From Methanobacteriota archaeon (lineage in GTDB: Archaea > Thermoplasmatota > E2 > DHVEG-1), in assembly GCA_963769885.1 (NCBI GenBank), contig CAVYNH010000004.1, forward strand, positions 140,495 to 204,494: a stretch of 64,000 nucleotides of DNA. The letters run 5' to 3'. The notes beneath the pieces were generated by a model, which was not told the origin of the DNA, made no database searches, and saw only the letters and a program-made list of their open reading frames with translations. The translations under genes and the position numbers were made by a program. Of this stretch, positions 2,609-42,511 are shown piece after piece (the stretch's first letter is position 1; the number at the start of each line of letters is the position of its first letter).

Positions 2609-2664
2609 GGTGCTATCGCCAGCATTGTTGGCTATCCTATCTCTTTGTGTTATCTGAAAGAAAT

Positions 2665-2678
2665 CTTTATATAATAAT
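2665..2678 (+). promoter_or_regulatory. archaeal TATA-box-like element (ctttatataataat) about 20-30 nt upstream of the ATG at 2696, in the divergent intergenic region
   Basis: An AT-rich TTTATATA motif sits at the typical archaeal spacing for a leaderless or short-leader transcript. Confidence 0.3.
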
Positions 2679-2695
2679 CTTATCGATGTCTAGAT

Positions 2696-3388
2696 ATGAA
2701 TATTAAAATATTGATGTCAATCATAATAATTTTTTTAGTCATGGGGTTTGTCTTCATTATTTTTGGTTTTTCGTCCCATCAAACCATTCTTTCCCATTGG
2801 TTCATCATCGTGGACATCTGTATTCTTTTAGGTATCACAACAAAAATCATGGATCAGCTGATTGATGACATCAACCTGAAATCATATCGGTTGTGGGTCA
2901 TCCCGCTTGCCGTGTTTATCCCAGGTTCCATGGCGTACCTTGCATTGACAGAAGGCCCCGTCATCGGTATGGTAATCGGCACCGTGATCGGGTTAATCAT
3001 CGCCGGGAAAATAGATCATCCAGCGTACGTCGCAAGCATCATTTTGTTTATCGCCCTCATCTTATTTGCCTTCGTTTTGGGTTTCATTCATATCGAGGTG
3101 ACAACGTTTTACATTATCCCGGTGGCTGCAGCCGGCTCGTTTTTGGATGAGTTCGGGCATGAACGATGGCGAAGTAACAACAAAACTGTCACCTTCATTT
3201 TTCAGCACAGGCTTTTCCTGAAAACGTTTGCCTTTTTTGGGGTCGTCTTCGGGTTCGCTCTGCCGATTCAATTTATCGGATTTCTTTGTTTTGATATTTG
3301 TTACGATCTGGTCGACACAACGAGTCGATCTGAGGAGAAGAGCAAAAAGTATGTTCCCGCTGGGCTTTCTTCAAACGGAATGAAGTAA
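2696..3388 (+). CDS. polytopic integral membrane protein of unknown function
   Basis: A 230 aa ORF with about 6 hydrophobic helices, embedded between radical SAM genes. No recognisable catalytic motif. Confidence 0.5.
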   Translation: MNIKILMSIIIIFLVMGFVFIIFGFSSHQTILSHWFIIVDICILLGITTKIMDQLIDDINLKSYRLWVIPLAVFIPGSMAYLALTEGPVIGMVIGTVIGLIIAGKIDHPAYVASIILFIALILFAFVLGFIHIEVTTFYIIPVAAAGSFLDEFGHERWRSNNKTVTFIFQHRLFLKTFAFFGVVFGFALPIQFIGFLCFDICYDLVDTTSRSEEKSKKYVPAGLSSNGMK

Positions 3389-3401
3389 AACGAGGTTCAC
3401 A

Positions 3402-4700
3402 ATGCGGAATCCTTTTGTAAAGCCCATCGCGGCGTGGTACTCCAACCAATGCTCCAGGTGTGGCACCCCCCGCATCGAAGCTCTCCTGCGTAGTTATCAC
3501 GAAACAATAATCTGCCCAGAATGCAGTACGCGCCTTCTTTTCGGAAGCATGCTGTTCAAGATACTCATGAGGTCTATGAAAATAGACGATGTCGAGCTAA
3601 GCGAGTTATCCTCCGATGCTGAAGCGATGGCCTCTATCAACGCATTTTTGCGCAGTATCAGGAGCCAAGGGCGTCTCGCGATTGAATTCGGTATCCCAAT
3701 CTATGCGGTCTTTGATGTCACGAGCAAATGTAACCTTGCCTGTATCCATTGTTACGCCTCAGGGCAACAAGAGGAGTTACCGACGACAGCGGTGACTCGT
3801 ATCTTAGACAAGCTTGCTTACGCAGGCGTGGGGATGGTTGATTTTGGAGGAGGGGAGCCTCTCCTACGAGCAGATATCTTTGATATTTTGGCGCATTCAA
3901 AACACAAGGGGCTGTATACATCGATTTCAACCAATGGGGTACTCCTTGATGAGTTCTGTGCGAGGCGCTTGAAAGAACTTGGTATCGATCACGTCTGCGT
4001 CAGCCTCGATGGCGCAACACCAGAGACCCATGATCGCATCCGGAATAAAAAAGGAACGTACGAGGAAGCAATCAGAGGTATTAAGCACTGTCGCAACGCC
4101 GGGATATCGACACAGATTTCAACGGTGTTTATGAGGAGCAACATCGATGAATTAGAGGACCTTACCAGGCTCTTAAAAGGGCTTCGTGTCGATGGATGGT
4201 ATCTGTATGATTTCGTTCCCGCTGGACAAGGGAAAGAACTGCTTCAGGAGGTTCTCTCCCAAGAGCAACGCAAGCATCTCTTTGACTATTTGGCGGACAT
4301 CGCGCCTTCAAGCACGATGACGCTGAAACCCTATCCGTATCTAATAACGATCAACTCCGTCTCTTGTACGGATACATATTTCTATAAAAAATATGGGCGG
4401 CTCACCGAGTTTTTTAAAGGGTGTTTATCAGGGCGATGGGTCTGTCATATCTCGAGCAACGGAGACCTCCATCCGTGCCATCTTTTACCCCAGACGCTCG
4501 GGAATCTTACCCAAGAAACCATCGAAGAAATCTGGTTCAACAAGAAGAACCGTGTTCTGCAGGAACTACGAGAAAGACGATTGGTAAAGGGAACCTGTGG
4601 AGAATGCACCCATCGAGACGTGTGCGGCGGATGCCGGGCACAAGCATTCTGGAAAACAGGCGATTATCTTGAAGGGGATTGCTGCTGGATTAAAAATTAA
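3402..4700 (+). CDS. radical SAM/SPASM-domain enzyme with N-terminal zinc-ribbon
   Basis: An N-terminal CxxC...CxxC ribbon precedes CNLACIHCY (CxxxCxxC) and GGGEPLL. The C-terminal motifs GCLSGRWVCHISSNGDLHPC and CGECTHRDVCGGC are canonical SPASM. Confidence 0.65.
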   Translation: MRNPFVKPIAAWYSNQCSRCGTPRIEALLRSYHETIICPECSTRLLFGSMLFKILMRSMKIDDVELSELSSDAEAMASINAFLRSIRSQGRLAIEFGIPIYAVFDVTSKCNLACIHCYASGQQEELPTTAVTRILDKLAYAGVGMVDFGGGEPLLRADIFDILAHSKHKGLYTSISTNGVLLDEFCARRLKELGIDHVCVSLDGATPETHDRIRNKKGTYEEAIRGIKHCRNAGISTQISTVFMRSNIDELEDLTRLLKGLRVDGWYLYDFVPAGQGKELLQEVLSQEQRKHLFDYLADIAPSSTMTLKPYPYLITINSVSCTDTYFYKKYGRLTEFFKGCLSGRWVCHISSNGDLHPCHLLPQTLGNLTQETIEEIWFNKKNRVLQELRERRLVKGTCGECTHRDVCGGCRAQAFWKTGDYLEGDCCWIKN

Positions 4701-4811
4701 ATACGTTCAAGGAAAAAAATTACCTCCGAAGTGATAACCAATACCCTTCAATGTCGATACTGAAGATCTGTTATCATAAGATATATTAATGTCCAACTCA
4801 CTTATTTTTTA

Positions 4812-5873
4812 TTGATGACTTCTCGCGATGTTCAGATTTATGGTGCCGGCGTATCCGGCCTTGTTTCCGGAATCCATCTCGCAAGAAAAGGGTACCATGT
4901 CACGATCTATGAAAAAGAACAGAAAATAGGGGGGAGCATGCACTGTCATCCATCGGTTCAAATGACTCCGATGCATATGTACCAGATGGAAGAGTATGTC
5001 GGAATAAAATTGAAATCATGTTTCTCGGAATTACGTGAGTTCCTGGGGTATATCGGTCCCAAAAAACTTGTCTTTTCCACCAAAGATCTTTACGTGGTCG
5101 AACGAGGACCACAACCGTCATCCCTCGATCATTTTCTCTATGAAAAAGCGGTAGAAGAAGGTGTTGAGGTCAAATTTTCACATCCGCTTACCTCAGAAGA
5201 GTTGAAAAGCATCCCGGAATATTCGATCATCGCAACCGCGGGATATTCACAGATAGTAAAAGCGCTCCATCTTTCGTATGTGGCTTTCAAACAATTTGAC
5301 ACACACATCAAGACTGATCTTGAGAATGTTTCCATCGCATACTTCGGTGATTTTACCTCTGACTACGGGTATATTTCAACGAAAAACGGGCTTCTGTCCG
5401 CGCAGCTTTCAGGCCCGTTAAATCTTTCTTCAGAAAAGTTGCATCGGTTTATGAAGGTGGTACAAGAAACCAAGGGTATTGACCTGGACGGATGGTCCTC
5501 TATTATCTCCTATTTCCCGAAAAAAGCACGATTGTTTACATCCTTTGCGGGAAAAACTCTTGTGCTGGCTGGGGACGTTGCAGGCTTTTTAGATCCGTTT
5601 TTTGGGTTTGGGGCGACCGGTGCCCTGATGTCTGGGAAAATTGCTGCGATGGGCATCCTGTCGAAGCAGAAGGCGTTACAAAAATTTACACAATGCACCT
5701 CTCATCTCAACAAGGACCTTTTCGTTCACACGCTGTACTGGCATCTCCCTTTTAAAAAATTCATCCTCTCCCAAGTCATGAAACTTCAAGACACGCATCT
5801 CACGTTTCTCAAACGAAGCATCCCAGGGTTCACCAATGAAGAGTGGGTAAAGATTATTTCGAGTGTTGATTAA
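4812..5873 (+). CDS. FAD/NAD(P)-binding oxidoreductase (geranylgeranyl-reductase-like Rossmann protein)
   Basis: The N-terminal dinucleotide-binding motif is IYGAGVSGLVSGIHLA...YEKE. Length is 353 aa. Confidence 0.5.
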   Translation: MMTSRDVQIYGAGVSGLVSGIHLARKGYHVTIYEKEQKIGGSMHCHPSVQMTPMHMYQMEEYVGIKLKSCFSELREFLGYIGPKKLVFSTKDLYVVERGPQPSSLDHFLYEKAVEEGVEVKFSHPLTSEELKSIPEYSIIATAGYSQIVKALHLSYVAFKQFDTHIKTDLENVSIAYFGDFTSDYGYISTKNGLLSAQLSGPLNLSSEKLHRFMKVVQETKGIDLDGWSSIISYFPKKARLFTSFAGKTLVLAGDVAGFLDPFFGFGATGALMSGKIAAMGILSKQKALQKFTQCTSHLNKDLFVHTLYWHLPFKKFILSQVMKLQDTHLTFLKRSIPGFTNEEWVKIISSVD

Positions 5874-6180: not shown

Positions 6181-6228
6181 TTAGGGGTGGGGAACTGAAC
6201 AATAAGCACTCATGTCCGCCCCCGACAT
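6181..6228. repeat. conserved intergenic element, family A copy 1 (ttagg..gggaactgaacaataagcactcatgtccgcccccgacat), followed by a 7-bp GC hairpin at 6218..6250
   Basis: A near-identical copy lies at 9931..9977. The element shares the core cgcccccgacat with family B copies at 8781..8840 and 12146..12200. Confidence 0.6.
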
Positions 6229-6279: not shown

Positions 6280-8604
6280 CTAAGAGGGTGCTATCCGGAT
6301 AAAGATAAGGAAAGCGTAACCGGCTGCGTTTTTAGTGATGGTGGGGATACCATCGGCGCAGACGGTGAAGGTGACGGTGAGGGGGCCGAAGGCGATGAAG
6401 GGGATGAAGGTTGCGGAAGCAGTTTTACCGGCGTCGATAGAGCTGATGTTGCCACATCGGAAGGTGCCAGAAAAGTTGAGCCAGGCTCCTTGGATGGTAT
6501 AGGTATAGACGATGTTGTTGGTAGTGCGGTTGCCGGGGTTGCTGAGGGTGGCTCGGAGTTGCATGAGGCCGCCTCTGATCTTGGTGATCTCGAGTTTGCC
6601 GCCTGCGGGGATAACATTCGCGGTGGTGGTATAAGGGAGGTAGTTGTGTTTGGTTACTGTGACGATCATGGTGCCGGTGGTGGTGGGTGCGACGGTGAAG
6701 GATACGATGCCTGAAATGCTAGTGGTGCCGACTTGGTAGACTTCAGTATTAAGAGTATCGCCTTTCCAGAGGCAGACGGTGGCACCTTCGATGGGGTTAT
6801 TGTTGCTGTCGGCGACGGTGACGTTGTAGGTGGAGGAGCCAACGGTGATACAGGATGGGTAGGTAACACGAAGCGTTCTTGGTGTTGCCGTCCAGATGGG
6901 TGTGCTAGGGTCGCCGAGGAGGGTGAGTTCGGTGTAGATGTATTGGTCGAGGTTGTCGCTGGAGATGCCGTCGTTCTTGTGATTTGAGAGGGCGGCGCCG
7001 ACCGTGTTTTGGTTGTGGGTAAAGATGGATCGAAAGAAGAGGCGGTCGAATTTGAGGCTGAGGCCGTTTTGGCTGCCTATATAGTACCAGCCGTAGCGGC
7101 TGTTGCCAATGAAGGCGATGCCGCCGCCGTGGGCGTTCCGGACAAAATGTTCGCCAATGCAAATATTCGCATCATATGCGCAGGGGTCGCAGCCCATGCT
7201 GTAGTAGATGCCTTGGCGTTGGGCGTTGGCGAGGCCGTCCATGTCGCCGCTGTCGATATACCAGCCGTGGTTGACCGACCCGGTGCCCATGGTGTAGATG
7301 CTGGAGTGGTCGGCGTGGTTCATGAGGTTCTGGCCGGCGTTGAGGGATTTGATGACGTTGTCGCGATGGTTGCCGCTTTCGCTGTCGTATACATGGGTCG
7401 TGTTCCAGCTGTGGGGGATGTAGGCGTCTTTAATGTTTTGTTTGCAGATCTCGACGTGGGTGCTGTTGTCGAGGTCGAAGCCGTACATGGCGGCGTTGGT
7501 GGCGAAGTTGTCGGCGGGGTGTTGTTCGTAGGCGAGGGTTTTGTTGATAAAGTTGCCGATCTGGCCGTTGCCGTCGCCGGAGCCGGTGACGCTGGCGCGG
7601 CCGACGTTGACTTCGATGGTCCAGTCTTCGTCGAAGTCAGCGTAGTAGGTGTCGTTGGGGACGGGGTCGGGGTCGACGGCGGGGAAGCTGTGGTAGTTGC
7701 AGGGGATGGTGCTGGTGTCGCCGCCGAGGAGGATATAGGTGGTGCCCCAATTGTCGTACACGTCTTTGGCGAAGGCGTTGATTTTCTGGTCCTTGCTGCC
7801 ATTGTAGCCGCTTTGGTTGTAGATCCAATCCGTGGTCATGATAATGGTGGGGATGCCGCATTGGGTGCGCCAGTCGGCGAGCGGTTGGAAGGCGTTGACC
7901 CAGTCGGGTTTGGTGATGATGACGTACTCGTAATGTCCGGGTGGGAGGCCTGTGGTGCGTGGTTTGGGGTTGTGTTGGAGGGCGATGTCGGGGGGGTTGA
8001 TGACTAGGTGTTGAACCTTGGCGATGCGTTGTTGGGTCTCGGTTGATGTGAGGCCGGTGGGGAGGTAGTCTCCGTAAGTATGGGTTGGCGTGCCGGTGAG
8101 GGTAATGGTGAGGCTGGTGGTGAGGGTGAGTGTTTTGTCGGCAGGGATGTAATGGATGGGGTAGATGGTGATGAGGGCGATGGCTTGACCTGCAAGGTCG
8201 GTCTCTGCGGTTAGTACGGCGGTCTGGGTTGGATAGGGTGTAGTGGAGTGGTAGGCTGTTTCGTCTGGTGATGTGAAGGTGTTGGTATCATCGTTGGTGG
8301 TGCGTGGTGTCTGTGTGGGCCAAATATTATAGGTGCCGATGAGGGGTTGGGTTCGTTGGTTGAGGATTTGGATGGCGGTGGCTTGAAGGTTGGGCGGGAG
8401 GGCTATTTTGAGGGTGATGGCGGGAAGGCTGGGTTTGCCTGGTTCGGTGGTGGTGCTGCCGTTTGTTGTGGTGATTTGGTCGTAGCCGTTGTATGTACTG
8501 AAGTCAAAGTCGTCGGATGTGAAGGTGATGGTGATTGTCTTGGTGGGGGTTGTGGTGGTTGCGGGTACGGTGGTCGTGAAGACGAGGCTGCCGATAATTA
8601 TCAA
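6280..8604 (-). CDS. secreted C25 (gingipain)-like cysteine peptidase with Thr-rich N-terminal linker
   Basis: A signal/TM and TTTTPTKT linker precede motifs YILLGGDTSTIPC, a His in MNHADHSS and a Cys in YYSMGCDPCAYD, which are C25-like. Closest paralog in window is 16082..18034. Confidence 0.55.
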   Translation of the reverse strand: MIIIGSLVFTTTVPATTTTPTKTITITFTSDDFDFSTYNGYDQITTTNGSTTTEPGKPSLPAITLKIALPPNLQATAIQILNQRTQPLIGTYNIWPTQTPRTTNDDTNTFTSPDETAYHSTTPYPTQTAVLTAETDLAGQAIALITIYPIHYIPADKTLTLTTSLTITLTGTPTHTYGDYLPTGLTSTETQQRIAKVQHLVINPPDIALQHNPKPRTTGLPPGHYEYVIITKPDWVNAFQPLADWRTQCGIPTIIMTTDWIYNQSGYNGSKDQKINAFAKDVYDNWGTTYILLGGDTSTIPCNYHSFPAVDPDPVPNDTYYADFDEDWTIEVNVGRASVTGSGDGNGQIGNFINKTLAYEQHPADNFATNAAMYGFDLDNSTHVEICKQNIKDAYIPHSWNTTHVYDSESGNHRDNVIKSLNAGQNLMNHADHSSIYTMGTGSVNHGWYIDSGDMDGLANAQRQGIYYSMGCDPCAYDANICIGEHFVRNAHGGGIAFIGNSRYGWYYIGSQNGLSLKFDRLFFRSIFTHNQNTVGAALSNHKNDGISSDNLDQYIYTELTLLGDPSTPIWTATPRTLRVTYPSCITVGSSTYNVTVADSNNNPIEGATVCLWKGDTLNTEVYQVGTTSISGIVSFTVAPTTTGTMIVTVTKHNYLPYTTTANVIPAGGKLEITKIRGGLMQLRATLSNPGNRTTNNIVYTYTIQGAWLNFSGTFRCGNISSIDAGKTASATFIPFIAFGPLTVTFTVCADGIPTITKNAAGYAFLIFIRIAPS

Positions 8605-8780
8605 AATTAAAGGGCAGCACAGGTGGTTTGTTTGAATACTTTTATTCCCCCTTTTTCTGGTGTTGAGAAGAGTTATACTTGCATGGTACTTTTAAAGGTT
8701 TTCCTGAAGTGTGCCTGAGGCTTCTCTTGAGTATGCCTGGGGGAAATATCCGGTGTAATATGTCAACTCAAATTGAAAGG

Positions 8781-8840
8781 ACCTAGAACGAAATCTGAAC
8801 CCCAGGGACTTATTCTCGCCCCCGACATCTTGTTGTACTA
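8781..8840. repeat. conserved intergenic element, family B copy 1 (aatctgaaccccagggacttattctcgcccccgacatcttgttgtactacgattcg)
   Basis: It aligns at about 75% over about 55 nt with 12146..12200. Both copies lie 110-170 nt upstream of secreted-protein genes. Confidence 0.55.
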
Positions 8841-8999
8841 CGATTCGCCTTTTCGGTGGAGGATTTGTTAGCACCTTGATATGCTCCGACCTGTAGATGC
8901 CGTCAACAGATGTTGTTATAAATAGTATAAATATAATTGAAATAGAGAAATATTTTTAAGAAGATGTCTTATACATAACAATGAAGAGGGAGGAAATCC

Positions 9000-9800
9000 A
9001 TGGCGAGATATCACCTTTTGAAGAAAAGTATAGCTGTTGGCATTATTAGCCTGTTCATTGGAGGATTAGCGACCTCAAGCGTCACCGTCAGGTGCGTGCA
9101 CGCATCTCAGGAACACACTCTTGTGACTGTGACTTCGGAGGTATGCGGTGCCCCAGGACTTGCCACACATACAGCCCTGATAACGGCACAGCAGTACCAG
9201 GAACTCGAGCAACAACTCGAAGCCATAAAGGAACGGCTAACACGCGGACTCTCGTATCAACAGACCATCGCAAGCATCCAGGAAATCGTGCGTGCGCTCA
9301 AGACCTATCAATTATTGCCACAAGGGGCGTCCATTGACCAAGTCCAACAGGCGATCGCAGGCCCATACGAGAATCCAACAGCGTTTATGGTGAGAGGAAA
9401 GGTAGCCCAGAGGAACGAGTTTTCCAGTAATCAAAGCAATTCCCTTTGTCTCATCAGCGGTACCGTTCAGGACGGGTCTGTCACTGGACCACTGGGGCTT
9501 GCGGGAGCAGCGATTGCGGCGTTAGGATTGATCCTCAAACAGAACCTCACAGCGGCCATCGGATTACTGCTGTTGGGTATAAGTCATTATATCACGACAC
9601 TTTCCCCCGTCTCACTCTTGCAACGAGTGACAATAAAATCAGGCAACATCACATCGGTCGGACTCAACGGTGTACAAATTTTCAATATCAGCAGCGAAAC
9701 TGGCGAAGGGGTGATATCCGGCTTCTCTGGGATTAAAATTACACGAGATGACACAAGCCAGATGAGCCTCCTTGGGTTCGCACTTGGCATCAAAGTATAG
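9000..9800 (+). CDS. membrane-anchored hypothetical protein (paralog of 57259..58107)
   Basis: An N-terminal TM anchor is followed by a conserved block VTVTSEVCGAPG...ITAQQYQELEQQLEAIKERL...YQLLPQGAS, matching VEVTTQACGIQG...LTRQQYQNLQQYL...YGLLPKGMS in the distant paralog. Confidence 0.5.
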   Translation: MARYHLLKKSIAVGIISLFIGGLATSSVTVRCVHASQEHTLVTVTSEVCGAPGLATHTALITAQQYQELEQQLEAIKERLTRGLSYQQTIASIQEIVRALKTYQLLPQGASIDQVQQAIAGPYENPTAFMVRGKVAQRNEFSSNQSNSLCLISGTVQDGSVTGPLGLAGAAIAALGLILKQNLTAAIGLLLLGISHYITTLSPVSLLQRVTIKSGNITSVGLNGVQIFNISSETGEGVISGFSGIKITRDDTSQMSLLGFALGIKV

Positions 9801-9930
9801 AACCAGAGGCTGCGCGCGGCGTCCGAGCGCTATCTGACAGGAAGCGCTTCTTGCCGTACATCGCACCAGCAGCTGAAAGCACCGATTTGCAACTGGTTCT
9901 CCTTAAACCAATTAAAAAAACCTGTGGTCA

Positions 9931-9977
9931 TTAGGAAAGGGAACTGAACAATACACACTCATGTCCGTCCTCGACAT
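9931..9977. repeat. conserved intergenic element, family A copy 2
   Basis: ttaggaaagggaactgaacaatacacactcatgtccgtcctcgacat differs from the 6181..6228 copy at only a few positions. Confidence 0.6.
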
Positions 9978-10086
9978 ATTTCATAATTAATTTGTTGTTT
10001 TTCCTTGGTGTTCTCCTGGTACAATTAAATATTACTATTCCAATACTCATAAATAGAGCAAGGACTTATAATGTTGAGGGGTTGCT

Positions 10087-11940
10087 ATGGCTCATCACGA
10101 CAAATCCCGGATCCTCATTTTATTAACGGCCCTAGTCATGATCAGTGCCTGCAGCGCCCAAGGATCATCACCAAAAGCCTCCAATATGGGTGAAGCCGGA
10201 GGGAAAGTTTTTGACGGGCAGATCCTGTTCTCCCCCTATTATACGACGACCACCTATTTGATCGATAGCAGCGGGACAGTGAATCATACGTGGCCAAGCG
10301 CGTATCGTCCCTTCACGGAGCCCTATTGGCTGGGGAATGGGACCATCCTTCGCCCCATCAGCTCCGGCGGCGGAGGCGTGCAAGAAATCCGCTGGGATGG
10401 GACCCTGGCATGGGACTATCGGTATACCGTCTCCGGGTGCACCTGCCACCATGACATCAAGTACCTCCCGAACGGAAACGTGCTCATGATCGTGTGGGAG
10501 ACAAAAACGAAGAACGAGGCCATTGCCGCCGGTCGGAATCCGGCGACCATCTCAGGGAGCACATTTACCTCCGATAAAATCATCGAGGTGCAGCCGACCG
10601 GCCCGACAAGCGGGACGGTCGTCTGGGAGTGGCACGTCTGGGACCATCTCATCCAGGATTTCGACGCCTCAAAGGCGAATTACGGGGTGGTCGGCGATCA
10701 CCCTGAACTGATTGACGTGAATTTTGGCGACGATTTCGTCGGCGACTGGCTGCATACCAATTCCGTTGATTACGACCCCCAGTTCAATCAACTCCTCATT
10801 GACAGCCATAACTTTGACGAGGTCTGGGTCATCGACCATAACACGACCACGGCGGAGGCCGCGGGCCACAGCGGTGGGCACTACGGGCATGGCGGAGACT
10901 TGCTCTACCGATGGGGAAATCCGCAAGCGTACCGACGGGGCACCTCCAGTGATCAAAAGTTATACTGGCAGCATGACGCCTCATGGATAGAACCTGGGTA
11001 TCCCGGTGCGGGACATGTCCTGGTGTTCAACAACGGCTACAACCGCCCGGGCACGAAATATTCGACCGTGGATGAGTTCGCGCCGCCGATCGATTCTAAC
11101 GGTGTGTATTATCTCGCGCCAGGGTCTTCCTATGGGCCTGCTGATTTCTTCTGGGACTTTACCGCGACTCCGCCCACCTCGCTGTATTCAACCGTGTTCG
11201 GCGGCGCCCTGCGCCTCACGAACGGGAATACGTTGATCTGCGATGGGATCCCGGGGAAGTTCTTGGAGGTGACCCCGGATAAGACCGTGGTCTGGCAGTG
11301 GACGAACCCGTATCCGAGTGCAGGTCAGAACAGCGTGTTCAAGATCGATTATATTCCCCATGATATCCCACCAAGTCCACCCCAAATAACAGGCCCGACG
11401 ACGGGAAAAGTCGGGGTTGCGGCACAGTATAATTTCACGGCCATTGACCCTGACGGGGAGGACATCTTCTACTGCATCGATTGGGGCGACCAGACGACTC
11501 CTACCTGGCTTGGCCCCTACCACTCTGGCCATGAGATACCCATGAATCACACCTGGGCTCAGACAGGGTTGTACTCGATCAGGGCGAAGGCGAAGGATGG
11601 CCACGGGGAAAGCGACTGGTCGGACCCGTTCGTGGTCACTATTATTGGTTCGATGCTCGAAACCAACATCGTGGGAGGCATTGGCGTCAAGGCAGTCATC
11701 GCGAACACGGGGGCATCGGACGCCATCGGTGTGCAATGGAAAATCAACGTTGAAGGCGGTGTCGCTGGGAGTATCAATAAGACGATGACCGGCACAGTGG
11801 ACATCCCGTCGCAACAATCGAAGACGGTGAGGACAGGCGTGTTCTTTGGGTTTGGGCCAATTAGCATAACAGTGATCGTCGATGGCGAGGAAACGACTGC
11901 AGAAGGAGCATATCTATTCGTCTTTTCGACGATAAAATGA
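10087..11940 (+). CDS. secreted lipoprotein-like aryl-sulfotransferase (ASST)-like beta-propeller protein with C-terminal PKD-variant (IDWGD) domain
   Basis: A signal peptide with a Cys precedes propeller-type repeats (HHDIKYLPNGN, WEWHVWDH, LHTNSVDYDP). The C-terminal module is DPDGEDIFYCIDWGDQTT..WLGPYHSG..HTW..GLYSIRAKAKDGHGESDWS. The ASST assignment is tentative. Confidence 0.45.
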   Translation: MAHHDKSRILILLTALVMISACSAQGSSPKASNMGEAGGKVFDGQILFSPYYTTTTYLIDSSGTVNHTWPSAYRPFTEPYWLGNGTILRPISSGGGGVQEIRWDGTLAWDYRYTVSGCTCHHDIKYLPNGNVLMIVWETKTKNEAIAAGRNPATISGSTFTSDKIIEVQPTGPTSGTVVWEWHVWDHLIQDFDASKANYGVVGDHPELIDVNFGDDFVGDWLHTNSVDYDPQFNQLLIDSHNFDEVWVIDHNTTTAEAAGHSGGHYGHGGDLLYRWGNPQAYRRGTSSDQKLYWQHDASWIEPGYPGAGHVLVFNNGYNRPGTKYSTVDEFAPPIDSNGVYYLAPGSSYGPADFFWDFTATPPTSLYSTVFGGALRLTNGNTLICDGIPGKFLEVTPDKTVVWQWTNPYPSAGQNSVFKIDYIPHDIPPSPPQITGPTTGKVGVAAQYNFTAIDPDGEDIFYCIDWGDQTTPTWLGPYHSGHEIPMNHTWAQTGLYSIRAKAKDGHGESDWSDPFVVTIIGSMLETNIVGGIGVKAVIANTGASDAIGVQWKINVEGGVAGSINKTMTGTVDIPSQQSKTVRTGVFFGFGPISITVIVDGEETTAEGAYLFVFSTIK

Positions 11941-12145
11941 AAAAAGGTTCAGTCATCCGTTGACCCGTTGGAATCTGGGAAGCATCTGAAGTCTCAGGGG
12001 CTCCTTCCGATTTCTGGCATGCTTCGATTTTTGGGGAATAATTTCAAGCGTACCCAATATCGCAATATTCAATAGATCACTTTTAAACCCTGCAAGGCAT
12101 ATTATACTTCGAGCTAGGTAAGCGCATTCATCTGTTAATCCTCAA

Positions 12146-12200
12146 AGAATCTGAACCCAGGGCTTAGCTCTTGCCCCCTACTCTCTAGTACAATTATCAA
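12146..12200. repeat. conserved intergenic element, family B copy 2
   Basis: aatctgaacccagggcttagctcttgccccctactctctagtacaattatc aligns with 8781..8840. Confidence 0.55.
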
Positions 12201-12290
12201 ATTTTATTACCTGTGTGAATCCGGTTCGTAGATAGGTAGATTAATAAATGAAATCTTCTATTTTAATTAACAACATACGGGGGATACTTC

Positions 12291-14234
12291 ATGAACAAGA
12301 AATGGTTCAGTCTCGTGGTATTGTTCCTATTATGCACGACGAGCTATGTCTGCGTCACCGCCAGCCAACCAGCAAGCTCTGACCCAGGAACGTCCTATAG
12401 GCTTCGTCTACACACTAAGGATGCACCTCGAGTCGCCGCTCAATTCATCAAAGAAGGATACGACGTCCTGGATGGAACCGTCACCGAAAACTCTTTTGAA
12501 CTCATCTGCCAGCCGCCTGTCTATCAGCGATTGCAGGCGCTGCAATACAACATGGATGTGCTTGCTCGTGGACAACCATTCAGCGAGATCCAACGCGAAC
12601 TGAACCAAGGGTCGACGCTTCCAGTGCCCCCCGGGTATCCAACGCTGGCTGAAATCCTCAATCAACTGAACACTACCGCGGCCGCGAACCCCTCCATCTG
12701 CAAGGTCTACAACCTCACGACAACCTACGGCACCAACGTGACCTATGAAGGCAGACATATGTGGGCGTTGAAGATCTCGGACAACGTCGCCGTCGATGAA
12801 GACGAGCCGAACTTCCTCAACGTCGGCAACTACCATGCCCGTGAAATCGTCACCCCGGTGCTCATCCTCTACGCCATTAACCAAATGGTCAGCGGCTATG
12901 GGACGAACCCGACAATCACCGGCATCGTCGACAATTATGAGCTCTGGTATGCTCCCACATGGAACCCCGACGGCTACAACTACGTCTACAACGTCGACAA
13001 CATGTGGCGGAAGAACCGCCATCCCTACCCGCCTGGTGTCGGTGTCGACCTGAACCGGAACTATAATATCGGCTGGAACGTCGCTGGCAGCACCGATCCT
13101 ACCTCTGAGGAGTACCGGGGTCCATTTGTTGCCTCGGAATCCGAGACGCAGACGATGGTCGCCTTCAACAACAACCGGCATTTCGCGAAAGTCCTGGATT
13201 ACCACTCCTCCGGCCGCGAGACCCTCTATGGTTACCTGACGTTGACCCACCCCTTCATCAGCTGGCTGCAGTCTGAGGCGGTGCAACTCTCGACACAGTC
13301 TGGGTATGGTGGTTCGGTTCGCCCGCCAAGTTCCGAAGGTGAAAACTACGAATGGCAGCTTGCCTGCAACGGCTCGTATTCGAACCTGATCGAGACCGCG
13401 ACCGATTTCCAGCCGTCCTACGCCAGCGCGCAGGCAGAGGCGGTCATGGTGTGGCCCGGGCAGTTGTGGATGCTGCAGCGGCCAATCTCCGTCAGCGGCC
13501 ATGTGACGAACGCGGTGACGGGCGCGCCCGTCGTCGCCTCCATCGTCCTTCAAGGCGTGAACTTCCAGAACGGGGAGTATTACCGCAGCGAGCATCGCTT
13601 TGGACGGTACCATCTTTTCCTGCCTCCAGCGACGTATACCCTCAATATTTCTGCCCCCGGGTACTTCTCGCAGACGCAGCAGGTGACGGTCACGCAGTCT
13701 AGTGCTGAAATCATCGAGATTCACCTTGCTCCGCTGAACGCGCCGCCGTCCAAGCCTGATATTACAGGTCCTACCTCTGGGCTTACCGACGAGCAGTTGG
13801 AGTACCGGTTCTCCTCCATTGACCCCGATAACGACACGATTTCTTACTCGATTGATTGGGGCGATGGGACCGCGCCGGTCTGGCTTGGCCCGTATCCATC
13901 CGGGTTCGAGGCGAATACGACGCATCAGTGGGTCTCTGCGGGAACGTACCCGGTGAAGGTCAAGGCCAAGGACCAAGTGGGTGCCGAGAGCAACTGGTCC
14001 ACGTCATTGTACGTGCATATCAACGCCTTCAAGCGGGCATTCGTCTTCGGGCTCATCTCGGAGAAGAACCAGACTAGTGAACTGATTACCTTCAAGGCGA
14101 AGTTCCTCCTGGTGCTGCCGTCGACGTCGATGCTGTACCATGCCGGTCAGACCATCGAGGTCTCCACTGATGGGAAGCTTGGCTTCATCGGTGAACATTT
14201 CGCCGCCGGATTCTTCAAGACATTGGTTCTTTGA
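12291..14234 (+). CDS. secreted zinc carboxypeptidase, peptidase family M14, with carboxypeptidase-regulatory-like and PKD-variant C-terminal domains
   Basis: A signal peptide is followed by the HxxE motif YHAREIV, NPDGY and DLNRNY, which are M14 signatures. A transthyretin-like block (SGHVTNAVTGAPV...) follows. The C-terminal module is IDPDNDTISYSIDWGDGTAPVWLGPYPSG...VKVKAKD. Confidence 0.7.
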   Translation: MNKKWFSLVVLFLLCTTSYVCVTASQPASSDPGTSYRLRLHTKDAPRVAAQFIKEGYDVLDGTVTENSFELICQPPVYQRLQALQYNMDVLARGQPFSEIQRELNQGSTLPVPPGYPTLAEILNQLNTTAAANPSICKVYNLTTTYGTNVTYEGRHMWALKISDNVAVDEDEPNFLNVGNYHAREIVTPVLILYAINQMVSGYGTNPTITGIVDNYELWYAPTWNPDGYNYVYNVDNMWRKNRHPYPPGVGVDLNRNYNIGWNVAGSTDPTSEEYRGPFVASESETQTMVAFNNNRHFAKVLDYHSSGRETLYGYLTLTHPFISWLQSEAVQLSTQSGYGGSVRPPSSEGENYEWQLACNGSYSNLIETATDFQPSYASAQAEAVMVWPGQLWMLQRPISVSGHVTNAVTGAPVVASIVLQGVNFQNGEYYRSEHRFGRYHLFLPPATYTLNISAPGYFSQTQQVTVTQSSAEIIEIHLAPLNAPPSKPDITGPTSGLTDEQLEYRFSSIDPDNDTISYSIDWGDGTAPVWLGPYPSGFEANTTHQWVSAGTYPVKVKAKDQVGAESNWSTSLYVHINAFKRAFVFGLISEKNQTSELITFKAKFLLVLPSTSMLYHAGQTIEVSTDGKLGFIGEHFAAGFFKTLVL

Positions 14235-14327
14235 AGAAAAAAATTTGACTCGAAGGATTGATACCCTTAGATCTAAATGGATAGAATTCATAATGAATTA
14301 ACACCCTGAGCGAGGGAGGGAGAACGT

Positions 14328-15974
14328 ATGAAAAAGAATCTCTGGGTCTTGATTGTCTGCCTGCTGCTGATAACATCGACTTTCACCTTCATCTCTTCGA
14401 CCATTGAGCCTGAAAAGAACGTCCGCGCCAATGAGGCGGCCGTGACCAAGGACTGCGGATGCGGTTTGGAGGATGAATCCGTTAGTCAAGAACCGGTTCG
14501 CACTCAGATTCTTGTGGATGAAACTGTCGGCGAGTCCGGAAGACCCGCGCCAGCCAGCGACTTACCCGCGTCTTTCAGCTGGTTAGACATGAATGGATCA
14601 GACTGGACGACGCCTGCCAAAGACCAAGGGAGCTGCGGCAGCTGCTGGGACTTCGCCGCGATCGGGGCGCTGGAAAGCATCATCCAGATCCAGGAGGGAT
14701 GCCCCGGGCTGCGGCTCGACCTCTCCGAGCAATACGTGCTGTCCTGCCTGCATGCGGCGGGAAGCTGCAAGGGCGGATGGGCGTATAACGCGTTCAAGTA
14801 CATCAAGAGCAACTCCTCAGCCGGGAATTTCTGCAATGGCATCATCCCAGAGTTTTGCTTCCCCTATCAGGTCAATGACGATGTCCCCTGTGCGAACGCC
14901 AGCCCCGACTGGAGATCGTTTCTCATCCCGATCACGAACTATGGCCGATGGGCTGCGAACGGCAGCGCTCAGGCCCGCGACGTGATAAAGACTCAGGTCA
15001 TGACTTTTGGGCCGGTTGCCGCCACGATGCTGTGCACCTATTATATCCATGGCGATGGAAATCTGGAGGAATGGGGCTATATGCACCATGATCCGACGGA
15101 GTACTATGCCTATCCGGGGCCATACACGGGCACGAACCACCAGGTGGTCATCGTCGGCTGGAAGGACGACGCCTCCATCCCGCACGGTGGCTATTGGATC
15201 GTGAAGAACAGTTTCGGCCCGGAATGGGGGTATGACGGGTTCTTCAACCTCGAGTACGGCAGCCTGCGGATCGATGCGGCGGATATCGACTGGGTGGAGT
15301 ACAACCCGGCGAACTACAGTAACTGGGTGCCGGTCGCCCAAATCGTGACCCAAGGGGCTGCATCCATGGACCAAGCGATCACGTTCAATGGGAGCACCAG
15401 TTTTGACCATGAAGGCAGCATCGTTTCATATCAATGGGACCTGGGCGATGGGACGAGCCAGCCCGGTCCGGTTGTCTCGCATTTGTATGCGAGCCCGGGG
15501 ATCTATCGGGTGACGCTGACGGTTACAGATAATGATAACAATACGGGGTCGCAGTCGGTGTGGGCGTATGTCGACAAGGTGAACCATCCACCAAAGACGC
15601 CGACGCTGCGAGGCCGGCGGTACGTGCAGCCGAATGAGACGTATTCGTATACGTTTTTCTCTGCTGATCCGGACGGCGACGACGTTTCCTATTATCTCAA
15701 TTGGGGGGATACGTACTGGTTTGGTGGAGCGGCGGGGTGGCTTGGCCCGTATCATAGCGGTCAGAAGGTGACCTTGGACAAGAACTGGACGGATAAGGCG
15801 AATTATACGGTGCGCGTCAAAGCCGCTGATCAGTACGGGGCGAAGAGCGGGTGGGCGACTCTGAAGGTCTCCAGTTCCGCTGTCTCAGTGGTCCCGGAGA
15901 ACGGGTTCTGGGCGCAGTTCTTCGAGCGGTTCCCGCATGCGTTCCCGGTCCTGCGGCGCCTCTTGGGGTATTGA
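14328..15974 (+). CDS. secreted papain-like cysteine peptidase (family C1) with canonical PKD plus PKD-variant C-terminal domains
   Basis: A signal peptide is followed by QGSCGSCWDFAAIGALES (catalytic Cys), His in NHQVVIVGW and Asn in YWIVKNSFGPEWG. One PKD domain follows (WDLGDGTS...YRVTLTVTD), then ADPDGDDVSYYLNWGD...WLGPYHSG...VRVKAAD. Confidence 0.7.
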   Translation: MKKNLWVLIVCLLLITSTFTFISSTIEPEKNVRANEAAVTKDCGCGLEDESVSQEPVRTQILVDETVGESGRPAPASDLPASFSWLDMNGSDWTTPAKDQGSCGSCWDFAAIGALESIIQIQEGCPGLRLDLSEQYVLSCLHAAGSCKGGWAYNAFKYIKSNSSAGNFCNGIIPEFCFPYQVNDDVPCANASPDWRSFLIPITNYGRWAANGSAQARDVIKTQVMTFGPVAATMLCTYYIHGDGNLEEWGYMHHDPTEYYAYPGPYTGTNHQVVIVGWKDDASIPHGGYWIVKNSFGPEWGYDGFFNLEYGSLRIDAADIDWVEYNPANYSNWVPVAQIVTQGAASMDQAITFNGSTSFDHEGSIVSYQWDLGDGTSQPGPVVSHLYASPGIYRVTLTVTDNDNNTGSQSVWAYVDKVNHPPKTPTLRGRRYVQPNETYSYTFFSADPDGDDVSYYLNWGDTYWFGGAAGWLGPYHSGQKVTLDKNWTDKANYTVRVKAADQYGAKSGWATLKVSSSAVSVVPENGFWAQFFERFPHAFPVLRRLLGY

Positions 15975-15976
15975 GA

Positions 15977-16065
15977 CCCCCCTTTCTTTTTTTCCTTTTC
16001 CTTGATGAGAGTTGATGAACGAGCAAGAAAAAGGGGGAAGTCCCCGGGTTTAGCGGCCGGGGGAC
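15977..16065. terminator. bidirectional terminator region: oligo-T tract immediately after the stop at 15974, plus GC hairpin gtccccgg/ccgggggac at 16040..16065, between convergent genes
   Basis: A T-rich run (ctttctttttttccttttcc) sits next to an 8-9 bp GC stem between convergent ORFs. Confidence 0.4.
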
Positions 16066-16081
16066 TGCGGGGGTGATCTCG

Positions 16082-18034
16082 TTATTGGGCGTAGCCGCCG
16101 ATCATGAGGCTGGGGTCGCCGAGGGCGAGCCATTCCTCGACGGTTTTGGTGTCTGCCTGGTCTGCCATGCCTGGGTAGACGTTCAGGTATCGGGTTATGG
16201 AACCGCTCCAGGCGTTGCCGAGGGTCTTAATCGTGCTGGCGTTGTAGGCTTGCAGGAAAGTGCGTTCGATGAAACCGCCGAGTACTTGGTAGCAGGCTGG
16301 TTCCCCGTTCACGTCTCCGATGCCGCCATAGCCGAGGCCGGTGTTGCCCATCACCGCGATGGCGCCGCCGCCTATTTTCGCCATCATCCATTCGCTCCAG
16401 CACCGCGGTGTAGGTGATCCATGGGTCCAGCTGTGGGTGTTATTCTTGTCCAGGGACCACAGGAGGGAGATGTTAATCATGCTGTTGTGGCAGCCGCCGA
16501 CGAGGCAAATCGGGAGTTTTTCGCGGTTGAACAGGGTCATCATATTGTAGATGTGGAGTCCGCCGGGGGTGTGTCCGCTTTTCCAGGTAAATTCGTCATG
16601 CCAGTGGGTGTTCCAGGCGGTGGGGCTGCCGTGGCCGTCGAAGTGGAGGAATCCGCAGCCTGCCGTGATTTCCCGCTCGATGTTCCTTGGGGTGGGCGTC
16701 GAGGTGTTGGTGATGTTACGGTTGGAGGCAAAAAGGTTGATGGCGGTGAAGGTGGGGAGGGATTCGTTGTGGCAGTAAAGGGTTGCGACTTCTCCTTCGT
16801 TGTAGTCGCCGGTGGTGGTGTCATTGAAGGAGTCGCCGCCGACGAGAACCTCTTTGTTGAACCAGGTGGGGTCCGCTTGGGTTGCCTCGTAGGTGATGAT
16901 CTTTTTAACCATAATTTTGAGTTCCGGTGCGTTGCGGCAGGCGAGTCGTCCGACGGCGACGTCCGGGTAGAGGTCGAGGATATCTTTGCCGGCGCCGTTC
17001 CATTTGGCGTAGATGTGGTCGCCATTGGTGTCCCAGCTGGAGAAGTTGCCGTTGCTGTCGTAGATGTCTGCGAAGTAGAGGTCGCTGACGAGGCCGGGGT
17101 CGTAGACGGTGCCGCCTTCGTTAATGTTGGCGTAACGGACGGGGCAGTACCAGGTTTTGACGCCGGCGTTGGCGTTGTCGCGGCCGCCCTTGCCGAAGAT
17201 GTAGCCTTTCATGCCGCCGATGAGCAGGACGTAGGAGGTGTTCCAGGCGTCCACGGCGTGTTTGATGAAGTACTTGATCTTCTCGGGTTTGTCGTAGCCC
17301 GTGTATTGTTTGTAGATATCCTCGAGGGTCATGATGGTGGTGTTGACGCCGTGGCCGATCTTCGCGGTGGCGAGGGGTTCGAGGATGTTAGTGAATTTCT
17401 TGGGGGTGATGATGACGAGGTCGTAGCCGGTGCCGAAGGTCTTCGGGGTGGTTGGGGTTTGGTAGGTGATGGTGATAGTGGCATCCTGGAAGTATTGGAG
17501 GGTGTTGGCAGCGGGGTTGACGCCGGTGGGGAAGGTGCGGATGACGAGGAAGGTGGTGTGTGCGCCGTTGGCGTTCAGTCCGCAGCCGGTGCTATAGTCG
17601 AACCAGGCTGCGGGGTAGTACTGGTTAGATGTGTAGGCTTCGGGGTCCGCGTAGACTGTGAGAGGAGTGATTTGGTCTTCAGGGACGGCTTGTGGTGAGG
17701 GTTTGAGTGGTGCGGTGAGGGTGAGGGTTTCGGTGGTGTGTGGTGTGAGGGTGACGCTGGCGATGGTGGTGCCGAAGGGGAGTTCGAGGGTGGTGGTGGT
17801 CATGGGGATGGCGGGTTTGCCGTCGGCGATGAGGGCGTTGTCGGCGCCGGCGACGGTGAGTTCGGTGTAAGTGTGTGAGTCAATTGTGGTTAAGGCTGTG
17901 GTGGGCGTGGAGAAATGGAGGTTGATTGATTCTGTGGTGGTGGTCTGCTGGCCTGTTGTTAGTATGGTGAGTCCTCCGATGAGGAGTAGGACTACCGCTA
18001 GACAGGAGAGAGTTTTGCTCTGTATTTTTATCAC
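16082..18034 (-). CDS. secreted C25 (gingipain)-like cysteine peptidase with Thr-rich N-terminal linker
   Basis: Motifs are a signal peptide, YVLLIGG, FDGHGSP (His) and LVGGCHNS (Cys). It is a paralog of 6280..8604. Confidence 0.55.
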   Translation of the reverse strand: MIKIQSKTLSCLAVVLLLIGGLTILTTGQQTTTTESINLHFSTPTTALTTIDSHTYTELTVAGADNALIADGKPAIPMTTTTLELPFGTTIASVTLTPHTTETLTLTAPLKPSPQAVPEDQITPLTVYADPEAYTSNQYYPAAWFDYSTGCGLNANGAHTTFLVIRTFPTGVNPAANTLQYFQDATITITYQTPTTPKTFGTGYDLVIITPKKFTNILEPLATAKIGHGVNTTIMTLEDIYKQYTGYDKPEKIKYFIKHAVDAWNTSYVLLIGGMKGYIFGKGGRDNANAGVKTWYCPVRYANINEGGTVYDPGLVSDLYFADIYDSNGNFSSWDTNGDHIYAKWNGAGKDILDLYPDVAVGRLACRNAPELKIMVKKIITYEATQADPTWFNKEVLVGGDSFNDTTTGDYNEGEVATLYCHNESLPTFTAINLFASNRNITNTSTPTPRNIEREITAGCGFLHFDGHGSPTAWNTHWHDEFTWKSGHTPGGLHIYNMMTLFNREKLPICLVGGCHNSMINISLLWSLDKNNTHSWTHGSPTPRCWSEWMMAKIGGGAIAVMGNTGLGYGGIGDVNGEPACYQVLGGFIERTFLQAYNASTIKTLGNAWSGSITRYLNVYPGMADQADTKTVEEWLALGDPSLMIGGYAQ

Positions 18035-18123
18035 CCCTTGTACTGAGATACAGGTAGTTGAAGGAGATATAAATATTTATGTGAGAGATAAAATCTAGGG
18101 AGGGGGGATGTTTTATATTTCTC

Positions 18124-18666
18124 GTGGCGGATGCTGGGGGGATGGTGAAGTCGTCGTTGCCGTCGCCGGAGTCGTTTGTGAGGCGTGCGAGGGCTTTGGG
18201 GGCGGCGGATGCGAAAATCGTCGCTCCGAAGGACGTGTTCACGGCGGAGTGGGTGCGGGTGAAGTGCCAGTTCGGCTGCGACGGGTATGGGGAGCATTTG
18301 ACGTGCCCGCCGTTTTCGCCGACGCCGGCGCAGACTCGGAGGATCCTGGATGAGTACGAGGTCGCGGTGTTAATCCATTACGACTCGGAGGATTGGGAGG
18401 ACATCACGGGGGTCGTGGTGACGCTGGAGCGGGAGGCGTTCCTGGCCGGGTATTATAAGGCGTTGGGGCTGGGCTCTGGGCCGTGTACGCTGTGCGAGAC
18501 CTGTGATATCAAGAGGAGGTGCCGGCATCCTGAGGAGGCGCGGCCGTCGATGGAGGCGTGCGGCATCGATGTTTTTAAGACGGCGCGGGCGGCGGGGTTT
18601 CCCATCGAGGTTGTTAAGGATTATTCATGCCCGCAGAACTACTACGGGCTGCTGCTCCTCCAGTAA
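18124..18666 (+). CDS. predicted metal-binding protein (DUF2284-like, C-x-x-G...C-P-P motif)
   Basis: Motifs KCQFGCDGYGEHLTCPPF and CTLCETCD are present. The actual start is possibly the Met at 18142. Confidence 0.45.
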   Translation: MADAGGMVKSSLPSPESFVRRARALGAADAKIVAPKDVFTAEWVRVKCQFGCDGYGEHLTCPPFSPTPAQTRRILDEYEVAVLIHYDSEDWEDITGVVVTLEREAFLAGYYKALGLGSGPCTLCETCDIKRRCRHPEEARPSMEACGIDVFKTARAAGFPIEVVKDYSCPQNYYGLLLLQ

Positions 18667-36764: not shown

Positions 36765-36787
36765 TTTTTACCAACCATCCTTTCCTT

Positions 36788-42505: not shown

Positions 42506-42511
42506 GCAAAT

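Follow-up and report, generated by a model that had tools for sequence, protein, structure and literature searches.

The interval 6280-18034 of a 64,000-nucleotide stretch from the Methanobacteriota archaeon contig CAVYNH010000004.1 (the whole stretch is referred to as the window) comprises exactly six long open reading frames (ORFs), termed genes A to F, and both of its ends coincide with boundaries of minus-strand ORFs. Exported peptidases with intact catalytic residues are probably encoded by four of these genes, and the residue-level check described below suggests that the four enzymes are probably active. We consider it likely that the block constitutes a lineage-specific "secretome island" of an uncultured Thermoplasmatota archaeon, made up of six individually placed genes whose products are exported multidomain proteins, including four catalytically competent peptidases, which is mosaic in its makeup and not organized as an operon. 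Extracellular proteolysis would be the most likely function of the four peptidases.

Families were assigned by Pfam and NCBIfam profile searches of the translations, employing the curated cut-off of each family. In agreement with the original prediction, Pfam places two C25 peptidases, one M14 peptidase, one C1 peptidase and one arylsulfate sulfotransferase (ASST)-family protein in the block. Gene A (6280..8604, minus strand, 774 aa) and gene F (16082..18034, minus strand, 650 aa) encode gingipain-type C25 cysteine peptidase zymogens, gene D (12291..14234, plus strand, 647 aa) an M14 zinc carboxypeptidase that resembles carboxypeptidase T, and gene E (14328..15974, plus strand, 548 aa) a papain-family C1 peptidase. 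The remaining two genes encode a membrane protein with no assigned family (gene B, 9000..9800, plus strand, 266 aa) and the ASST-family (PF05935) protein (gene C, 10087..11940, plus strand, 617 aa). The motifs quoted beforehand, NYHAREI, WNPDGY and DLNRNY in D and QGSCGSCWDF in E, are present in the translations, and alignment to solved holotypes or homologues revealed no substitution of the catalytic residues in any of the four peptidases.

Gene A matched Peptidase_C25 (PF01364) with an E-value of 3.2e-54 (185 bits versus a cut-off of 23) and Propeptide_C25 (PF08126) with 3.6e-12 (46 bits). Gene F likewise matched Peptidase_C25 (2.3e-56, 192 bits versus the cut-off of 23), and its Propeptide_C25 match (1.3e-4, 21.5 bits) fell just below the 22-bit cut-off. 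In A, a short or ambiguous signal precedes the prodomain (residues 41-170), the catalytic domain (227-569), an Ig-like domain (about 583-672) and a C-terminal CARDB-like beta-sandwich, the C-terminal part being covered by weak CARDB and Ig matches. In F, the signal is followed by short Thr runs, the prodomain and the catalytic domain, which lies at the C-terminal end; the protein terminates directly behind it. The Thr-rich linkers that had been described for the C25 proteins thus exist as Thr runs, yet these comprise only 4-6 T/S/P residues and are mostly located just after the signal. We did not retain the suggestion of O-glycosylated linkers, the basis of which consists of these runs only.

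Alignment of A with RgpB, a remote relative (single-sequence E-value of about 1e-8), places His211 and Cys244 of RgpB (1cvr/4ief) on His433 (codon 7306-7308, minus strand) and Cys472 (codon 7189-7191, minus strand) of A. The RgpB numbers were counted off the alignment, which reproduces the textbook positions of Glu152 and Asp163; as read from the same alignment, Glu152 is not conserved in A. In F, His468 (codon 16631-16633, minus strand) aligns to RgpB His211. In the F family, the segments with the catalytic His and Cys are set far apart by a large insertion, and HMMER therefore leaves the Cys of F unaligned to RgpB directly. In an alignment of 26 sequences, His468 and Cys515 (codon 16490-16492, minus strand) of F are both invariant, and Cys515 shares its column with the Cys of A. 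The profile built from these 26 sequences matched the solved structures of RgpB (5.5e-25) and Kgp, the Kgp alignment covering the Cys region, and it also matched PorU (6za2) at 2e-9. Separately, the same profile matched the prodomains of RgpB (4ief_A, 9e-7) and Kgp (5mun, 6e-9). Since both the catalytic domains and the prodomains are matched, these data indicate that A and F are gingipain-style zymogens. The invariant Glu415 of F, and likewise Glu385 of A, falls on the S1 residue Asp163 of RgpB in a low-confidence stretch of the alignment, which weakly hints at cleavage after basic residues.

Like the Porphyromonas gingivalis gingipains RgpB and Kgp (MEROPS C25; PDB 1cvr, 4ief, 4rbm, 5mun), A and F thus combine an N-terminal inhibitory prodomain with a caspase-fold catalytic domain and conserve the His/Cys dyad; in A, the catalytic domain is in addition followed by an Ig-like domain. 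In contrast to the gingipains, they contain neither the T9SS (type IX secretion system) C-terminal domain (CTD) nor haemagglutinin/adhesin domains, and the S1 Asp163 of RgpB is replaced by Glu. In line with this, no Por/T9SS CTD match was obtained for A or F with Pfam and NCBIfam. The NCBIfam top matches of both proteins are PorU-type sortase models, at about 60 bits versus a cut-off of 420.

Gene D yielded Pfam matches to Peptidase_M14 (1.8e-48), CarboxypepD_reg and PKD. Its domain order is a signal, an N-terminal domain of about 85 aa, for which Pfam returned no Propep_M14 match, the M14 catalytic domain, CarboxypepD_reg (residues 400-480), a PKD domain of the type solved in PDB 4xed (4XED-type; codons 13743-13994, plus strand) and a C-terminal domain of about 70 aa. 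The best solved relative is carboxypeptidase T (CPT) of Thermoactinomyces vulgaris (MEROPS M14A; PDB 1obr), which was matched at 7e-32 with the single sequence and at 1e-51 with the profile. The zinc ligands His182 and Glu185 (HAREI) align to the CPT motif HAREH, His305 (DYHS) aligns to the third zinc ligand of CPT (...tfHtY...), and WRKNR (Arg243) and DLNRNY (Asn255, Arg256) are identical to CPT; in the numbering of carboxypeptidase A (CPA), the zinc ligands are His69, Glu72 and His196 and the carboxylate binders Arg127, Asn144 and Arg145. Hence, D shares HxxE, WRKNR, DLNRNY and the third His ligand with CPT, from which it differs by the additional CarboxypepD_reg, PKD and C-terminal domains.

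In 21 homologues of D, His182, Glu185, Arg243, Asn255, Arg256, His305 and Glu368 are invariant, and Tyr353 is nearly so (at least 90%). The HMMER alignments end before the region of Glu270 and Tyr248, the last third of the M14 domain being too diverged. Glu368 (in the motif LIET) and Tyr353 are located 63 and 48 residues past His305, close to the spacings of 74 and 52 residues after the third His in CPA, taken from the established numbering. From this invariance and spacing only, we infer that Glu368 may be the M14 general base and Tyr353 the counterpart of Tyr248.

Gene E matched Peptidase_C1 (PF00112; 5.3e-36, 125 bits versus a cut-off of 20.7) as well as PKD. Behind the signal and a spacer of about 50 aa, the protein consists of the catalytic domain, a canonical PKD domain (15321-15578, plus strand), a 4XED-type PKD domain (15585-15851, plus strand) and a C-terminal tail (15900-15971, plus strand) reading ...FFERFPHAFPVLRRLLGY. 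Cathepsin C (1jqp) aligns with E at 1.4e-26, and Gln100, Cys106 (codon 14643-14645, plus strand), His271 and Asn294 are all in place with respect to the papain residues Gln19, Cys25, His159 and Asn175. E therefore keeps the four residues of cathepsin C (DPP-I) and cathepsin H (C1A; PDB 1jqp, 3pdf, 8pch). Unlike these enzymes it lacks the exclusion domain and an I29 prodomain (no Inhibitor_I29 match was found in E, whose signal and mature domain are only about 50 residues apart), whereas the two PKD domains and the tail are added. The exo-acting cathepsins C and H are the closest solved relatives, albeit the sequence as such cannot tell an exo- from an endopeptidase.

The tail of E belongs to a recurrent motif, ...[FL][FL]ERFP[HN]AFP[ILV]LR.LLG*, which also ends nine other ORFs in related Thermoplasmata loci (L003, L014, L015, L016, L022, L036 and L060). 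It is always located directly behind a 4XED-type PKD module, in exported proteins that are otherwise different. None of the family models matched this ERFPxAFPxLR tail, which we regard as a candidate sorting or anchoring signal.

Export was judged by a crude hydropathy and charge analysis of the N-termini only. By this test, the N-termini of B to F consist of a basic n-region followed by a hydrophobic core of 12-19 residues, and C to F show no further transmembrane (TM)-like segment. The claim that all proteins of the block have signal peptides therefore stands for B to F and fails for A when its TTG start is used, as the resulting N-terminus, MIIIGSLVF, has no n-region. The in-frame sequence upstream of A (window 8605-8720, minus strand) reads RKRGNKSIQTNHLCCPLILIIIGSLVF, a textbook-like signal that is devoid of ATG, GTG and TTG. 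In a relative with a 96% identical F gene (locus L006, a Logan assembly), the corresponding stretch also contains none of these codons, and three of five substitutions are synonymous. This conservation suggests a non-canonical start, and it is plausible but unproven that gene A begins at ATA, ATT or CTG.

Several of the proteins share modules outside the catalytic domains. The PKD-like module common to C, D and E is 30-51% identical in pairwise comparison and matches PDB 4xed at 1e-20 to 1e-24 (3.7e-24 for the module of C, codons 11368-11622, plus strand). This structure shows the PKD domain of a peptidase of the M14-like type, encoded in the single-cell genome AB-540-F20 of MBG-D (Marine Benthic Group D), and a comparison with the predicted fold likewise supports the match (target-normalised TM-score 0.89). 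In addition, a weakly CARDB-like beta-sandwich closes both A and C.

The two genes that do not encode peptidases narrow the notion of a "hydrolase arsenal" that was put forward for the block. Gene C passes the Pfam threshold for Arylsulfotrans (PF05935; 7.4e-19, 68-70 bits versus a cut-off of 24.2) and also matches PKD. Its layout comprises a signal with a lipobox-like ISAC, the ASST-family domain at about residues 45-425, the PKD module and the CARDB-like C-terminal sandwich. The PF05935 family transfers sulfuryl groups, and gene C is not countable among the hydrolases; the label it had been given thus has to be corrected, and the protein should be left out of hydrolase counts. Homologues of C, falling into more than 100 clusters, are unusually well conserved: their best BLASTP segments show 51-79% identity (65-78% in most cases), 10 His residues are invariant, and they also carry PF14269. 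Like the bacterial ASST of E. coli (AssT), C is exported, predicted to be mostly beta and endowed with conserved His residues; unlike it, C is fused to PKD and CARDB-like domains and has no sequence match to solved chains. The ASST-family profile retrieved no ASST chain among the solved structures, only designed Kelch propellers, and a fold search with C did not retrieve ASST either. Neither the fold nor the active site could thus be linked to solved ASSTs, and the propeller of the original prediction, which would be six-bladed as in AssT, is a putative one. No alignment to a characterised ASST was obtained; the 10 invariant His residues are candidates for the catalytic His that carries the sulfuryl group, and the spacing of His122, His223, His241 and His296 presumably resembles that of the E. 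coli residues 252, 356, 374 and 436.

Gene B, absent from the original prediction, is not a hydrolase. It combines an N-terminal TM segment or signal with a hydrophobic helical hairpin at about residues 160-200. Neither Pfam nor NCBIfam yielded a match for B, and none of 31 family members matched Pfam, so that its 552 representative homologues form a widespread family without a Pfam model. In the AlphaFold2 (AF2) model of B, which has a pLDDT of 81 overall and of about 97 over residues 145-266, the latter region is predicted to form a beta-sheet wrapping the hydrophobic helical hairpin; a comparison of the model with the PDB gave no fold match below an E-value of 0.1. The GC content at third codon positions (GC3) of B is 0.54 versus 0.69-0.78 in the neighbouring genes. 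In another Thermoplasmata locus (L003), a homologue of B is located downstream of FG-GAP and NosD genes.

The genomic context was followed in 80 genome loci centred on C25 genes, considering neighbours within 10 kb. Conserved synteny was observed for F alone among the six genes: in L001, L007, L009 and L012, where F is 55-64% identical, it adjoins M48/HtpX, accompanied in some of these loci by DUF2284 and/or UbiA genes. In these relatives none of A to E lies next to F, and the M48 side matches the right-hand side of the window. The best match of F in a species-representative genome is 64% identical, the species of the window being absent from the reference genomes, whereas the D protein is 100% identical to one encoded on a 392-kb NCBI/ENA contig. 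The closest species-representative genome, a metagenome-assembled genome (MAG) from Alinen sediment, carries, at the conserved UbiA-M48-DUF2284 position, two tandem F-type C25 genes (L009 10001-14175) that both share 63% identity with F, which indicates a local duplication of the F family. With the exception of L006, no M14 catalytic domain or ASST propeller was observed near C25 in the 80 loci (0 of 78 other C25 loci). A C1 domain occurs near C25 in four of them (L015, L036, L039, L081), a second C25 gene is present in about ten, and many share the PKD module only. Homologues of C and D occupy unrelated neighbourhoods elsewhere.

In the 96% relative L006 the gene order is F-D-C-x-A. Gene E is missing there by a clean indel, the 1772 bp of window 14269-16040 corresponding to 103 bp in L006 (2861-2963). 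The absence of flanking repeats at this indel and the neighbour-like composition of E (GC3 0.73) suggest that E was deleted in the relative or moved within the genome rather than that it represents foreign DNA. In place of B, L006 carries an unrelated gene encoding a multi-TM protein of 201 aa. The synonymous divergence (dS) from L006 varies along window 6280-18666, with values of 0.05 for A, 0.09 for F, 0.21 for DUF2284, 0.26 for C and 0.35 for D, and this mosaic indicates recombination between strains. The ratio of non-synonymous to synonymous divergence (dN/dS), determined against L006 for A, C, D and F as all testable genes, ranges from 0.13 (D) to 0.52 (A); these four genes are under purifying selection. 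Together with the conservation of the catalytic residues, these ratios led us to reject the possibility that the peptidases are pseudo-enzymes. We likewise rejected the idea that the hydrolase genes were recently acquired from a foreign source, given that their GC3 of 0.69-0.78 is near the 0.75-0.90 of core genes; atypical values are confined to B and to a radical-SAM cluster in the left flank (0.45-0.54).

The gene orientation in the block is mixed, and the spacers between B and C (286 bp) and between C and D (350 bp) are AT-rich. These large AT-rich spacers, the mixed orientation and the different C-termini argue for separate transcription units. The six genes are not an operon, and the same gene set and order was not found in independent lineages. 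A scan with sigma-70 promoter and terminator models remained at background level, this model being not appropriate for archaea. The block of the original prediction thus holds in that the genes are clustered in this genome, with the 96% relative as the only other case; it does not hold as a conserved or co-regulated unit. Given this strain-level, mosaic clustering, neither an annotation of the block as an operon nor its use as a marker locus is advisable.

Some of the breakpoints coincide with an intergenic repeat element of about 39 nt. Copy 1 (6190..6228, plus strand), located 52 nt beyond the stop of A, reads GGGAACTGAACAATAAGCACTCATGTCCGCCCCCGACAT. Copy 2 (8795..8828, plus strand), in the divergent intergenic region between A and B, has a degenerate 5' half and the identical 3' end CGCCCCCGACAT, and copy 3 (9939..9977, plus strand) is identical to copy 1 at 35 of 39 positions. 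A possible fourth, degenerate copy (12151..12184, plus strand) resembles copy 2 as judged by eye. The degenerate pattern CTGAAC...CG.CC.CGACAT has three matches versus 0.01 expected. All copies are in plus orientation, copies 2 to 4 lying 172 nt, 110 nt and about 105 nt before the starts of B, C and D, respectively. The shared upstream elements that had been noted accordingly precede B, C and, as a degenerate version, D; they are absent before E and F.

The homology with L006 ends at the last base of copy 2 (8828) and restarts at 9966 inside copy 3, and the alternative cassette of L006 is itself flanked by two copies of the element (about 7050-7090 and 8240-8277). The break of homology at one copy and its resumption inside the next indicate that the B cassette was exchanged between copies. 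Near-identical copies are present on two unrelated metagenome contigs (L089 633-666 and L090 2988-3021), where the genes downstream of them encode a NosD/beta-helix protein in one case and a transglutaminase-like protein in the other, and each copy is followed by an AT-rich, TATA-like stretch. A further match in L012 (8 mismatches) does not adjoin a secreted-protein gene and was set aside. The search of the block against Rfam returned nothing at the gathering or E<=1 threshold, no match to the element was found in viral contigs, and RNA folding of the element gave no signal (z-scores -0.9 to +2.0); these results speak against both an RNA element and an att site of viral origin. An origin from a tRNA fragment was dropped, as by inspection the loop is unlike a T-loop. 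Tentatively, the element may represent a boundary or recombination site of exchangeable cassettes, through which strains of the lineage would trade genes that encode exported proteins, a reading that we consider unlikely. If it is true, the element would define a modular "secretome island" with genes for exported proteins exchanged between strains. Instead, or in addition, the element could be a shared operator, that is, a protein-binding site just upstream of promoters.

As assumed in the original prediction, the host is an archaeon: genes for an eEF1A-type elongation factor and for a glycerol-1-phosphate (G1P)-dehydrogenase-like protein are present in the window, and all named homologues of F, D and C, with two exceptions, derive from Thermoplasmata/Thermoplasmatota MAGs, such as SG8-52, SM1-50 and the Thermoprofundales MAG M11B2D. 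The exceptions are one M14 homologue of D from Zixibacteria and one 68% identical homologue of C (L091) on a bacterial-looking contig with PTS, GPAT and ATP-synthase-I genes, which suggest cross-domain transfer.

The peptidase repertoire of the block is in line with published data on the same phylum. C25, C01A and M14 peptidases were predicted to be extracellular and found to be transcribed in Thermoprofundales MAGs (Zhou et al. 2019, PMC6461988), and extracellular gingipain, clostripain and collagenase genes are described as typical of the group (PMC9585477, citing Lloyd et al. 2013 Nature). The protein-scavenging lifestyle that had been proposed for the organism is the same reading as that published for the phylum (PMC6461988, PMC9585477). 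The likeness to the MBG-D/Thermoprofundales repertoire, to which MAG M11B2D belongs, extends from the C25, C01A and M14 families to the PKD-rich architectures and to the PKD module matching 4xed from the MBG-D single cell AB-540-F20. The difference is that here four peptidase genes lie within 12 kb, an arrangement not seen around C25 in the 80 genomes.

Based on these data, a Sec-type N-terminal signal would export each protein, a signal-like segment having been observed for B to F. The two C25 enzymes would be made as zymogens and become endopeptidases after loss of the gingipain-type inhibitory prodomain; the conserved Glu at the S1 Asp163 position might, as a weak inference, direct cleavage after basic residues. 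The C1 enzyme and the CPT-like M14 enzyme would then trim the ends of the fragments to small peptides and amino acids for uptake. Attachment of the enzymes to the cell surface or to particulate substrate is probably mediated by the 4XED-type PKD modules together with the CARDB-like sandwiches and the ERFPxAFPxLR tail. Protein B and the ASST-family protein C would be exported proteins that are merely co-located and are not hydrolases, and the island as a whole would be a mosaic remodelled by gene gain, loss and replacement.

Several observations weigh against this reading. Thermoprofundales rich in such genes took up no 13C-protein in RNA stable-isotope probing (RNA-SIP; PMC9123169), and gene content is therefore no proof of protein catabolism. 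No peptide transporter turned up beside the block, where no search aimed at transporters was made. The signal calls stem from crude hydropathy, and A is without a proper signal from its canonical start. At the level of individual residues, the assignment of the S1 Glu depends on a low-confidence stretch of the profile alignment, and those of Glu368 as the general base and of Tyr353 on invariance and spacing only.

Alternatively, the C25 proteins, and perhaps others, might process the surface proteome of the cell itself in a PorU-like manner, for instance in S-layer maturation, shedding or attachment, instead of digesting food. The NCBIfam top matches of A and F to PorU-type sortases and the match of the C25 profile to PorU 6za2 would be compatible with this function, as would the many neighbours in related genomes that encode PKD, FG-GAP or NosD surface proteins and the fixed core-genome position of F beside the membrane protease M48/HtpX in the 55-64% relatives, which sets it apart from the other genes. 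However, the PorU scores are far under the cut-off, and the matches to RgpB/Kgp are much stronger (1e-24) and include the cleavable prodomain typical of secreted zymogens. Moreover, archaea are without a type IX secretion system, no CTD cargo signal was detected, and the occurrence of several paralogues per genome and of more than 570 loci fits nutrient acquisition better. We therefore regard surface processing as quite unlikely; as far as the original prediction had proposed it, it would apply to F, the only gene with conserved synteny, in a role analogous to that of PorU, though with less support than proteolysis for nutrition. Even less probable, and in our estimation highly unlikely, is that the peptidases serve antagonism or defence against competitors, viruses or host tissue and that the island is a strain-variable "weapon" locus. 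Gingipains are established virulence factors in Porphyromonas, and the strain-level gene gain, loss and replacement together with the mosaic divergence in the island would suit such a role. Moreover, 27 Thermoprofundales genomes were reported to carry C25 genes on predicted plasmids (PMC9585477). On the other hand, the window contains no toxin, immunity or secretion-system genes, the GC3 of the hydrolase genes is close to that of the host core, these genes are under ordinary purifying selection, and the homologues originate mostly from MAGs of free-living sediment and lake organisms.

A third possibility, to which we assign a substantial, albeit somewhat less than even, chance, concerns the clustering only and is compatible with, not opposed to, the interpretation as an island of exported proteolytic enzymes: genes for secreted proteins are abundant, and four peptidase genes could have come together in one region by accident at a recombination hotspot, with their co-location having no functional meaning. 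This would be consistent with the confinement of the cluster composition to this lineage, with the unrelated contexts of the C and D homologues elsewhere, with the coincidence of the repeat elements with recombination breakpoints, and with the C25 paralogues and secreted PKD/FG-GAP genes that are scattered in the window and in related genomes. Conversely, endopeptidases and both kinds of exopeptidase make up a complementary set, and A, C, D and F were kept together in two lineages despite dS values of up to 0.35.

With regard to the interpretation as a secretome island with extracellular proteolysis, the published view already credits sediment and lake Thermoplasmatota with C25, C1 and M14 peptidases that are intact and exported, and the block adds one more well-resolved example; the new genes are members of known families in a phylum for which exactly this repertoire has been published. 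The only leads toward something new might be the repeat that marks the breakpoints of the cassette, the B family with its many homologues and the ERFPxAFPxLR tail that recurs at C-termini.

Outside the block, more exported-looking FG-GAP/PKD and Big_7 proteins, among them a tandem pair of Big_7 paralogues, are encoded at 35937-37624, 43927-45807, 48650-50107 and 54737-56896, which indicates that the secretome-rich character is not confined to the block. A patch with 35% GC (window 42001-44000) contains a DUF5343 gene and two ORFs without families. The left flank (192-5873), with 43-45% GC versus 55-60% elsewhere, harbors genes for three radical SAM/SPASM proteins and an FAD oxidoreductase as well as a 230-aa ORF with no assigned family; it looks like a compositionally foreign peptide-modification cluster, reminiscent of those for ribosomally synthesized and post-translationally modified peptides (RiPP-like).

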